Shown in pieces: positions 3,755 through 63,972 of a stretch of DNA of 64,000 nt. The notes beneath the pieces were generated by a model, which searched no databases, was not told the DNA's origin, and saw only the letters and a list, made by a program, of their open reading frames with translations. A program made the translations under genes and the position numbers. The stretch comes from Opitutales bacterium (GTDB taxonomy: Bacteria > Verrucomicrobiota > Verrucomicrobiia > Opitutales > PNEW01). The stretch spans positions 1,408,001 to 1,472,000 of the forward strand of contig CBDANS010000006.1 in the NCBI GenBank assembly GCA_965197745.1, in the 5' to 3' direction. Each line of letters opens with the position of its first letter. Within the stretch, counting starts at the first letter, position 1.

Positions 3755-3797
3755 GGATTGCTTCGTCTCCCGCTGTTGCGGGCTCCTCGCAATGACA
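3755..3797. repeat. TGTC/CGTC-type REP-like palindrome arm (GGATTGCTTCGTC..CTCCTCGCAATGACA)
   Basis: Same motif recurs near 13128-13156 and 63938-63972; here the loop contains an extra CCCGC..GCGGG hairpin. Confidence 0.65.
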
Positions 3798-12996: not shown

Positions 12997-13156
12997 CATT
13001 GCGTGGGAGGCCACCAGCTGGCCCCGACTACCGAGTCTCGCGACTGCGAAGCGGCATCTTCCATTCCAGGAGAATAGCCGTCGTGTTTACGATTACCACT
13101 CTATCTACTATAAATTTTTCCATTGAAGCTTCGTCTCTTCACTCCTCGCAATGACA
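12997..13156. repeat. Degenerate TGTC-type REP pair
   Basis: TCATTGCG.. left arm and GCTTCGTC..CTCCTCGCAATGACA right arm; shares CATCTTCCATTCCA with the 3709 region. Confidence 0.5.
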
Positions 13157-34236: not shown

Positions 34237-35481
34237 TGGAGTGACCCCCAAAAATGGTATCATTAACAGAGAGAGGTTATCGGGATAAACAGATAACCTC
34301 AATGAAAAGAAAAAGATATACAACAGAACAGATCATAGCAATACTGCGGCAGCCCGATACGGGCAAAACCGTGCAGGAAGTCTGCCACGGCAACAACCTA
34401 AGTGAACAGACCTTCTATCGCTGGGGCAAAAAGTATGGCAACTTGGAGCTGGCTGATGCGAAGCGATTTAAAGAGCTGGAAAAGGAGAATACGGAGCTGA
34501 AGAAGATGCTCGCTGATCAAATGCTCAAGCTTCGGGTGTTGGAGGAAACGCTCTCAAAAAAATGGTGAGCCCAAAGCAGAAGAAGCGAGCAGTAAAAGAT
34601 GCGGCTGAGAAGGGGCTGTGCTCGTTTTAGAGGGCTTGTGCTTATCTCAGCCTCAGTTGGTCAACGTACAGCTACCGACCCAAGCAGGCCAGTAAGAAGG
34701 CTCAGCAATTGGCCGAGCGGATTTTGACCTTGTCCTGGGAACATCCCCGTTACGGTTACCGGCGCATTCGTGCCTTGCTGGTGAAAGAAGGTTGGGCGGC
34801 AAGCAGGAAATTTGTACAGGCAGTGCGACGTTCTTCGGGCTTACAGGTAAAGCCCCCGAAAAAGCGTAGACACCGTCAGGGGATCTCTACTGGGCTCCCT
34901 ACTAAAGCAACCGGTCGCAATCACGTCTGGTCCTGGGACTTTGTCCATGATCGTACAGACAATGGCGGTATGCTAAAGATGATGACCTTGATCGATGTAC
35001 CGAGGAGCTGAAAGCGACGACACTCAAGCGAAGCGAAGACATATACGCGTAAATGTTTACGCATCCGGGTAGCTCGACAGCTCACCTCAACCGATGTTCT
35101 CTCGGTACTCAGCGAAACCATCGATGAAGAGGGAGTTCCTAGCTATATCCGCAGTGACAACGGCAGTGTTCCGAGGAGCGAAGCGACGACATGCGAAGCC
35201 ATTCATTGCTCATCAGGTGCAGCAGTGGTTGTCCGACAAAAAGATCAAGGCGATATATATCGATCCGGGCAGTCCCTGGCAAAACGGTTTCATCGAATCG
35301 TTCCATGCCCGTTTTCGTGAGGAGTGTTTAAACCGTGAACAGCTATGGACTTTAACCGAAGCACGTGTAGTGATCGAGGATTGGCGCCAGACCTATAACC
35401 ATGATCATCCCCACAGTCGATTAGGCTTTAAAAGCCCACAAGAGTTTGTCACATTCCTTTCAGATCTTGGCCGCGTTCGGG
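34237..35481 (+). mobile_element. IS3-family element A (IS407-like), defective, right end lost
   Basis: IRL TGGAGTGACCCCCAAAAATGGTATCA; orfA 34302-34568; A7 slippery site 34556-34562; orfB with YGYRRI, WSWDF, SDNG and PWQNGFIESF; TAG at 34628 and inserts at 34998-35039 and 35169-35199. Confidence 0.9.
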
Positions 35482-36799
35482 TGGTCGGGTTACACAAACT
35501 GGTCCACAGGGAGAGTTAGTCTGGAGAGGTTAATGTTGAAGTTAAGTTGGTAGAGGAAGTCAAGGCTTGGGCGCAATGAGGGCGTAGCCCGAATGGAGCC
35601 CGAGCCTTCGGTATTGAGGTTTTCAGTGAAGTGCCGTGGAGTGATGTTGCCGAGGCTGCGGTGGGGTCGGACATGATTGTAAAGCCAGCGCCAATCTTCG
35701 ATGACCACGCGGGCTTCGGTCAAAGTCCATAGCTGTTCACGGTTTAAACACTCCTCGCGAAAACGGGCATGGAACGATTCAATGTATCCGTTCTGCCAAG
35801 GGCTTGCTGGTTCGATATAGAGGGTTTTGATTTTCATCGCAGTTAGCCAGGCTCTCAATTGGCTTTCAATGAATGGCTTTGCATGTCGTCGCTTCGCTCC
35901 TCGGAACGGAACCGTTGTCGCTACGAATATATTTTGGCGGCCCATGCCGGTCGAGCAGTTTTTGCATGATACCGCGCACCGTTTCCGCATTGATATGGCG
36001 ATCAACATGGATCACCCGGCACTCGCGGGTGTACTCATCGAGCACGGTCAGCATTTTTAGACTGCCGCCGCGAACCGTCTTATCGTGGATAAAATCCCAG
36101 GTCCAAACATGGTCGGGATGTTCGGCCTTTGTCGGTAGCCCGGTGCAGACACCCCTGCGCCGGCGTCTTGGCTTGCGTGGGGGGATCGCCAGACCCAGTT
36201 CACGTCGCAGACCTTGCACGAGACGTTTACCCACCTGCCAGCCTTCGTCCTTCAACAGCTTCGTGATCTTGGGATAGCCCCACCTCGCGTATTGCCGTGA
36301 TAACCGCCTTACTGCCGCTTTTAGTTTCGTTAGCCAGGCATCCGGATGCTTGGCCCTATACGCATAGGTGGAACGGTGCAGCCGAAAGTACCGGCACCCC
36401 GCTCGCATCGAACACTGGCCCCGAGTCACAAGTCTCTCTGCCACTTGCCGCTTGTGCCCAGGGCTTACAGTTTTTTTTCGAGGGTCTCCTGCAGGATCTC
36501 TATCCCCAGCATCTTGTCCGCCAGCATCCGTTTTAACCGCGCGTTCTCCTTCAAAGAGCTCCTTCATCCGCTTGGCCTGGTTGACATCAATCATCCCAAA
36601 CTCACGTTTCCAGCGGTGGAAGGTCTGTTCGCTTATGTTGTTCTCGCGGCATGCTTCCAGGATCGTTTTCCCTTTGTCCGCCTGGCGCAGCATCCGTATT
36701 TTCTCTTCGGTCGTGTATCTTTTGCCTTTCATTGTCTGTGTCCTTTCTAGTTGGACCAGACTAACTTTTCAAGTGGACCAGTTTTCGTGGTCACGACCA
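35482..36799 (-). mobile_element. IS3-family element B, full length but defective
   Basis: Terminal IRs TGGTCGGGTTACACAAACTGGTCCAC and TGGTCGTGACCACGAAAACTGGTCCAC; orfA starts at 36732 with an extra base near 36554; A8 slippery site 36471-36478; orfB broken by a 31-bp insert at 35876-35906; no target-site duplication. Confidence 0.92.
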
Positions 36800-63867: not shown

Positions 63868-63972
63868 TGTCATCGCGAAGGAGGTGATGCCGACTGTGGC
63901 GATCCAGGGGAATGTCTGTAGCGTAACGCCGGCCCCCTGGATTGCTTCGTCGCGCTACTCCTCGCAATGACA
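63868..63972. repeat. Complete TGTC-type REP inverted pair
   Basis: TGTCATCGCGAAGGAG..GCGATCCAGGGG / CCCCCTGGATTGCTTCGTC..CTCCTCGCAATGACA. Confidence 0.75.

Follow-up and report, generated by a model that had tools for sequence, protein, structure and literature searches.

Short REP-like modules at conserved codons of IS3-family transposases in an Opitutales genome

Two interrupted IS3-family elements and the modules they carry

The window, a 64,000-nt stretch of contig 6 of an Opitutales bacterium (assembly of 4.45 Mb in 7 contigs, 92% complete), carries two insertion sequences (ISs) of the IS3 family, IS A and IS B, which lie tail to tail, and their translation revealed that both transposases were broken right after the SDNGS motif by the same short module. 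In members of the IS3 family, orfA is fused to orfB through -1 frameshifting at a run of A residues, the DDE catalytic site includes SDNG, and the inverted ends read TG...CA. IS A (34242-35481, plus strand), from subfamily a1 and truncated at its 3′ end, preserves orfA (34302-34568) and the A7 run (34557-34563) at which orfB is reached by -1 frameshifting, and its orfB presents an in-frame TAG stop (34628-34630) common to every a1 copy. IS B (35482-36799, minus strand) is a full-length element of 1318 bp from subfamily b1. Its ends, TGGTCG...CGACCA, are those of the IS copies elsewhere in the genome, where flanking repeats of 3-4 bp were observed at 7 of 30 full-length copies. Membership in the IS3 family was also sustained by an intact copy at C7:408026-406739, composed of a 100-aa orfA, the A7 run and a 354-aa orfB carrying W-D-F, SDNGSEF and NGYIES. 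A guessed right inverted repeat retrieved no full-length copy of IS A.

The 31-nt string of the first module, M1, occurred in exactly two places in the window, at 35169-35199 on the plus strand in IS A and at 35876-35906 on the minus strand in IS B, with 1 nt of difference between them, the coordinates and the difference being as the initial annotation had reported; 100 shuffles yielded no match. Together with a terminal CA, the module occupies 35169-35201 in IS A, where it shifts the frame by +1, and 35874-35906 in IS B, where the 'A' variant is placed at the same Glu codon. A second module, M2, is present in IS A alone among the two (34998-35041, plus strand, 42 nt at 34998-35039 followed by CA) and brings an in-frame TGA, which also agreed with the earlier description. 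The alignment of IS copies across the genome revealed two further modules, M3 (42 nt net) and M4 (34 nt net).

Uninterrupted alleles within the same genome allowed the exact event to be defined for all four sites. M1 was placed at the Glu codon of the SDNGS-E-F motif, whose empty alleles read GGT TCC GAG TTT ATT in four otherwise identical b1 copies and GGC AGT GAG TTC ATT in IS A-like copies; the filled alleles read G, the 31 nt and CA, followed by TTY ATT, so that the AG of the Glu codon was replaced. Similarly, at the Glu codon of L-I-D-E-Y-T-R, where intact alleles read ATC GAT GAA TAT ACG, GAT GAA TAT became GAT G + 42 nt + CA TAT (M2); at the Gln codon of P-W-Q-N-G, TGG CAA AAC became TGG C + 42 nt + CA AAC (M3); and at the Glu codon of R-D-E-C-L-N, GAT GAG TGT became GAT G + 34 nt + CA TGT (M4). 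In every case the first base of the codon was kept and the second and third were exchanged for a module that starts with TWCCGAG and ends with CA, the target being an A-R dinucleotide (N|AR|N). The uninterrupted alleles bore out the absence of target duplication claimed in the initial annotation, and its G^CAT junction stood for M1, M2 and M4 but not for M3 (C^...CA^A). The same alleles contradicted the view of a pure insertion: GAG or GAA becomes G + module + CA, and deletion of the module leaves GCA (Ala) instead of Glu.

Read from the sequence, M1-M4 are lesions that break the transposase reading frame. M1 and M4 cause frameshifts, M2 and M4 carry stops (an in-frame TGA and TAG), and M3 is an in-frame replacement of the conserved Gln by 14 codons; the frameshift or stop in the interrupted copies upheld the proposal that the modules inactivate transposases. 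In the TWCCG-AG start, the kept first base of the codon plus AG would spell the native residue at each site (Glu, Glu, Gln, Glu), which may be a coincidence. One IS B-like copy, in the C7:1466425 region, lacks M1 and shows a TAG in the position of the M1 Glu codon (TCC TAG TTC).

A genome-wide search with the 18-nt core shared by these modules returned 90 matches at up to 2 mismatches and none with the reversed control. The reading of their flanks assigned 73 to M1, all of them at the Glu codon of SDNGS-E-F in IS3-family transposases, 16 to intergenic repeats resembling repetitive extragenic palindromes (REPs), and 1 to M4. M1 was absent outside ISs in this genome, considering core and fuzzy matches, and its donors must therefore be IS copies. 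For the clear members of the family in this genome, the earlier remark on the absence of modules from housekeeping genes was borne out, about 10 weak fuzzy matches being unannotated.

A match to the downstream domain was required for typing, and 87 loci were typed, of which 77 belonged to lineages A, B and C; the other ten, which are IS3-like elements of greater distance, were excluded (8 without modules, 1 with M3 only, 1 with M4 only). M1 was present in 70 of the 77, M2 in 32 and at least one module in 72 (93%). The five module-free copies comprised two fully intact ones (C7:408026-406739 and C7:1352654-1353940), two with a lesion in orfA only, and one with a TAG at the M1 codon and other damage. 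Each of the two window copies of M1 lies in an IS whose subfamily has multiple copies and shares this module. The approximately 14-15 copies of a1 all carry M1, M2 and the TAG stop. In another subfamily, b2, M1 is found in all 16 full-length copies, which are separated by a median of 3 substitutions over 1.3 kb. These near-identical b2 copies and the a1 copies, all sharing modules, indicate that defective module-bearing copies have multiplied, presumably in trans.

Two further features of the locus concern the elements themselves. IS A stops abruptly at 35481, the right end of IS B starts at 35482 and the remaining part of IS A does not lie beyond IS B, which points to a deletion or rearrangement after nested insertion. 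In IS B, owing to a GAG to TTTG lesion (+1) at 36552-36555 on the minus strand, residues 1-60 of OrfA come to share the reading frame of orfB, giving an open frame of 415 aa once M1 is removed; the lesion is found in most IS B copies, with a mosaic-like distribution across b1 and b2.

Acquisition by diverged lineages and spread among copies

Consensus orfB sequences with the modules removed yielded a dS of 0.37 and a dN/dS of 0.155 between a1 and a2, a dS of 0.175 and a dN/dS of 0.20 between b1 and b2, and a saturated dS between IS A and IS B. The subfamily dN/dS values of 0.15-0.20 indicated that these lineages diverged as working genes. The modules were far more alike than their flanks, which answered the comparison that the initial annotation had proposed: identity ranged from 33/33 to 36/37, against 32-41/60 in the 60-nt flanks. 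For example, M1 was identical at 33/33 positions between a1 and b2, with flanks at 34/60 and 36/60 (~57%); M4 matched at 36/37 between IS A and IS D, with flanks at 32/60 and 37/60; and M2 was identical at 44/44 between a1 and a2. In IS D (C7:1678200-1676700), which is distantly related within the IS3 family, SDNGSEF and PWQNG are intact. IS E, a further lineage, carries at the same codon (intact allele GAT GAC TAT) an M2 variant that matches the a1 module at 39/44, with flanks at 33/60 and 34/60, and whose hairpin differs by compensatory changes (GCT-GAA-AGC to GCC-GCA-GGC).

Since the modules are nearly invariant beside diverged flanks, their acquisition at one and the same codon is later than the separation of the lineages; the modules are either younger than the lineages or held constant, and they entered several of them at one position. 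Separate acquisition at one codon by diverged IS lineages is thus supported by these alignments. Within a subfamily, in turn, the module is inherited. The initial annotation had proposed independent insertions, which stood for the diverged lineages and failed for the window copies themselves, as these inherited M1 within their subfamilies.

A different explanation would dispense with targeting: each module would derive from one accidental REP-like insertion, followed by passive decay of the ISs and their concerted evolution through homologous recombination or gene conversion and trans-mobilisation. Conversion among copies was in fact documented, and the initial annotation had named a conversion tract spanning the insert as a finding that would undo its proposal. 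Some copies are chimeric, with an upstream IS A part joined at M1 to a downstream IS B part. The window IS A contains an IS B-type tract of ~100 nt (about 35290-35390, plus strand), which in the alignment marks inter-lineage gene conversion, and its BLAST identity to IS B is 79.6% vs 73.6% for other a1 copies. Moreover, a1 and a2 share a low-divergence tract around M1 from -16 to ~+150 nt, and in b1 the orfA lesion and M1 occur in all four combinations (4, 5, 2 and 2 copies), the M1-bearing and M1-free copies being otherwise identical save for a TTT/TTC change 3 nt downstream that travels with M1.

Conversion may thus carry part of the spread, but other observations weigh against passive decay. 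Identity reaches only -9..+12 nt around M2 in a1/a2 and -13..+8 nt around M1 in b1/b2, and beside M4, IS A and IS D match perfectly over 1-2 nt, with flanks ~55-70% identical; these lineages are too diverged for ordinary homologous recombination to be likely there. The distinct M2 variant at the same IS E codon and the related modules that metagenomes show at the Glu-Phe codons of unrelated transposases (see below) also speak against it, as does a genome-wide fuzzy search in which no singleton module was found at other IS positions. The same module at the same codon in already diverged lineages indicates that simple decay is insufficient, and we regard the passive account as possible but rather doubtful. 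The route of spread would be either short-patch, homology-assisted copying or true re-insertion.

The purifying selection between subfamilies that all carry modules (dN/dS 0.15-0.20) would also be expected if the modules were functional intervening sequences, excised from the DNA or the RNA or skipped during translation, leaving the transposase active. Deletion of the modules leaves an open orfB in a2 (9 copies) and b2 (~14-16 copies), and a1 and a2 have expanded though the assembly holds no intact IS A. Contigs from three RNA-library runs and one DNA run were compared across the module site. The joints found over it belonged to unmodified alleles only, namely a skip of 36 plus AAACT (DNA and RNA) and a skip of 33 plus CT (one RNA library), the latter equivalent to GAG TTC; one loose contig end corresponded to a b2-like intact allele. 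The G|CA joint of a precise removal was absent from the three RNA and one DNA contig sets, which can miss rare forms. The share of intact alleles was higher in one RNA library (~25 vs 5 depth units), a difference that is not readable as expression without matched DNA.

Other features of the alleles point the same way. Intact alleles present GAG or GAA, whereas a precise removal gives GCA, in-frame stops are present in M2 (TGA) and M4 (TAG), and a1 has a further TAG. On sequence reading, the candidate take-off codons (AGT/TCC, GAT and TGG) found no match in the landing frame, and programmed translational bypass was rejected on this ground. A group I or II intron or another spliced insert was likewise discarded, given the missing G|CA joint in the three RNA-library contig sets, a weak argument, and the lack of a reverse transcriptase (RT) in the genome; to our knowledge, 31-44 nt is too short for any known ribozyme. 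Active transposases with removable or bypassed modules are accordingly considered very improbable.

The module family outside insertion sequences

Relatives of the modules were not confined to ISs. The 16 intergenic repeats of this genome are organised as TTGTCATTG-core-AGC, and three of them lie in the window, at 3783-3797, 13142-13156 (minus strand) and 63958-63972; the 18-nt core that they share with the modules substantiated the resemblance to TGTC-type REP arms noted in the initial annotation. A composite REP-like repeat with ~45 copies genome-wide, including these three window positions, was also observed, in which TTGTCATTGCGAGGAG..GACGMRGC is directly followed by TACCGAGCGCAGCGACATCTTCCA.., the latter resembling the start of M3.

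In a species-level genome collection, the exact 24-mer TWCCGAGGAGCGAAGCGACGACAT was found at 20 loci, 11 of them in IS3 contexts (one related metagenome-assembled genome, MAG) and 9 outside ISs, in other Opitutales MAGs (8) and a Parvularculaceae MAG (1). An Rfam scan of these 9 loci returned tRNAs only. Four closely follow a tRNA gene and lie within a repeated 3′ end of that tRNA, where the module occupies the T-loop (TTCG|AA|TCC, or the complementary sequence) in obedience to the N|AR|N rule; empty targets of the family include GAG TTC and the T-loop TTCGAATCC. The genome under study also has M2-like modules after tRNA-Asn and tRNA-Gln (C6:355392-355700 and C5:236387-236610), placed 80-100 nt downstream, in the T-loop of a partial 3′-end duplicate preceded by an inverted segment of the same tRNA. 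A long autonomous element was considered beside one tRNA-linked copy (L040) and rejected, as the neighbouring open reading frames (ORFs) looked like the genes of ribosomal protein L25 and peptidyl-tRNA hydrolase, judged by motif recognition without a test against hidden Markov models.

Among 301 Opitutales genomes, IS-type M1 was present in 3, all in one family, and the generic motif CCGAGGA-N7-GACGACA in 73, usually in 1-14 copies vs 84 here; the reversed pattern was found in 6 of the 301, once each. At 30 module loci from five other Opitutales genomes, none of the 66 overlapping or abutting ORFs matched a transposase family, and the modules were mostly located between housekeeping genes. In one of these genomes a PD-(D/E)XK (PDDEXK_3) gene was apparently split by a module (L225, G260:C457, ~120-780), with profile positions 32-68 and 75-114 on either side. 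The family as a whole thus appears REP-like and mostly intergenic, and its capture in IS3 orfB would be special to this lineage.

A metagenome scan gave at least 120 loci, including many chance matches in GC-rich coding DNA, and 19 were examined in detail. In one, a DUF772 (IS5-type) transposase domain was split exactly by the module at a Glu-Phe codon pair (profile 1-27 and 31-74); in a second, an rve core has the module ahead of its NG..ER part; and in a third, it is antisense beside an IS481-type helix-turn-helix, all three according to Pfam. Three more loci presumably involve IS5-like and IS66-like genes, judging by motifs to which Pfam gave no support.

These targets bear on the proposal, made in the initial annotation, of a host-encoded system that writes cassettes into conserved transposase motifs. 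All four IS-borne modules are located in the catalytic domain at conserved codons, 93% of the copies bear modules, and modules from metagenomes are located in genes of DUF772/IS5 type and rve type and possibly of IS66 type (the IS66 assignment and one of the IS5-like ones being based on motifs with no Pfam match). The 0 of 66 transposases at the 30 loci of the five other genomes, mostly intergenic, indicate by contrast that the family is not a dedicated device; one module there splits the PDDEXK_3 gene, modules are also known from duplicates of tRNA 3′ ends, and neither RT, Cas1 nor a linked gene was found. A defence system of the host is therefore held to be improbable. The silencing of ISs is a consequence of the modules, and no purpose is claimed for it.

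The consensus of the family consists of TWCCGAGGA, a mini-hairpin of 2-3 bp with a GNA loop, GACGACA, usually a second hairpin (GCGAAGC), and the CA end. The segment from GAGGA to GACGAC behaves as a stem of 2-3 bp, and its outer pair covaries between G-C (GCGAAGC, GCGCAGC, GCGTAGC) and A-T (ACGGAGT, ACGAAGT, ACGTAGT, ATGGAAT); forms with three pairs occur too, in a source list that includes chance matches without pairing. The oligonucleotide d(GCGAAGC) is specially stable.

The account towards which we lean, with a little more confidence than doubt, is that M1-M4 are very short (31-44 nt), non-autonomous elements of REP or MITE (miniature inverted-repeat transposable element) type, widespread in Opitutales, which break transposases, ride on defective ISs and move between copies. 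The few intact copies would amplify defective module-bearing ISs in trans, the module hitch-hiking with them, and modules would be transferred between copies at the corresponding codon. They may do so through re-insertion with a short sequence preference that the conserved protein motifs keep constant (e.g., G|AR|TTY, which is Glu-Phe), or through short-patch, homology-assisted copying. The enzyme involved would act on single-stranded hairpin DNA, and the sole candidate seen is a Y1 HUH transposase similar to REP-associated tyrosine transposases (RAYTs), whose link to the modules is weak.

Several points weigh against this account. An N|AR|N target is too uninformative to account by itself for the recurrence at the same codons, the assembly contains no intact IS A to mobilise the ~25 a1/a2 copies, and flanking repeats of 3-4 bp are found at just 4 of 16 b2 and 3 of 14 b1 copies. 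The documented gene conversion could explain a large part of the spread inside lineages A and B. The putative hairpin is suggested by covariation and by the stability of d(GCGAAGC), and nearest-neighbour DNA folding gave no stable structure (z +0.9 to +1.8).

Searches for Y1_Tnp, RT (RVT_1) and Cas1 in this 92% complete genome did not reveal an enzyme tied to the modules: RT and Cas1 were not found, and the single RAYT-like Y1_Tnp gene (C6:163149-163742) has no module-like sequence within 1.5 kb and is open for 199 aa vs ~310-350 aa in its relatives. The C-terminal part of this Y1_Tnp continues in another frame, and the gene is probably frameshifted. Across Opitutales, Y1_Tnp homologues were tallied by hand in 41 of 73 motif-positive vs 48 of 228 motif-negative genomes, a modest co-occurrence that genome size and kinship confound.

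A stronger version would see in the modules a homing-type mini-element of 31-44 nt, whose enzyme exchanges A-R for a GNA-hairpin cassette and recognises the DNA of conserved transposase motifs and tRNA T-loops, making it a hyperparasite of several IS families (IS3, IS5-type and rve-type) that silences them genome-wide; we put this forward tentatively and consider it rather unlikely. If the modules truly move from copy to copy at fixed codons, they would represent a natural mechanism that disables a whole transposase family (93% of the copies here) and, with a size of ~35 bases, a case of one parasite living on another. Empty and filled alleles, together with the dinucleotide rule and the T-loop targets, constitute a concrete substrate set for an enzyme search, and the case illustrates why conserved motifs attract mobile inserts even where the insert destroys the gene. 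If the spread were due to gene conversion only, it would still be a clear instance of concerted evolution carrying lesions through an IS family.

Comparison with known systems

Di Nocera et al. (2013; PMC3733652) described REPs tagged by GTAG and CGTC, reported intragenic copies, and found intragenic GTAG repeats to be most numerous in the Verrucomicrobium Opitutus terrae; the CGTC repeats have no dedicated transposase and present stems of 8-9 bp. In the available parts of that article, the pattern of one codon occupied across diverged IS lineages does not appear. The modules resemble REP, REPIN and CGTC repeats in being short, putatively hairpin-forming and non-autonomous; they have no GTAG tag, and CGTC adjoins hairpin 1 on the complementary strand, with CA at the tail and a putative stem of 2-3 bp, in place of 8-9 bp, whose outer pair covaries but which folding does not support. 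Unlike those repeats, they are nearly all located in one gene family, at four fixed codons, where they replace two bases and break the frame. Moreover, the hallmark of RAYT/REPIN systems, a RAYT gene flanked by its own REPs, is missing here, as the sole Y1_Tnp lacks modules within 1.5 kb. A literature search, conducted at abstract level save for PMC3733652, returned no description of one mini-element at one codon of diverged transposases.

Other classes of small elements were considered and set aside. Palindromic elements derived from IS200/IS605 insert 3′ of a single fixed tetranucleotide and produce no duplication; the absence of duplication fits, but the 5′ flanks of the modules vary (AGTG, TCCG, TCGG, GATG, GACG, TGGC, TTCG) and two bases are replaced. 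Integron attC sites are delimited by the R''/R' boxes (RYYYAAC...GTTRRRY), with the crossover at G|TT. The left junction of the modules is G|TT or G|TA, but there is no inverse core site and the right junction is CA|N.

Bypass inserts include T4 gene 60 and the 'byps' of Magnusiomyces mitochondria, which are short (27-55 nt) mobile inserts in coding sequence. The modules are likewise short and putatively mobile inserts inside coding sequence, differing in that they have no matched take-off and landing codons, in the placement of the stops and in the coexistence of uninterrupted alleles in the genome.

Internally damaged non-autonomous transposons, such as MITEs and KP-type P elements, outnumber their autonomous relatives. 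Similarly, defective copies dominate here (72/77), few intact ones persist, and a truncated transposase could inhibit; the defect, in contrast, is an inserted foreign mini-element and not an internal deletion, and it recurs in separate lineages. The module itself was rejected as a MITE, since its ends (TWCCGAG... and ...CA) are not inverted repeats and two target bases are lost with none duplicated.

Homing introns and inteins differ from the modules in that these have 31-44 nt, with no capacity for a ribozyme, an intein or an endonuclease, destroy the host gene, and gave no sign of splicing in the contigs. What they have in common is the occupation of the most conserved motifs, the spread between diverged homologues at an identical site, and an insert that is more conserved than its flanks.

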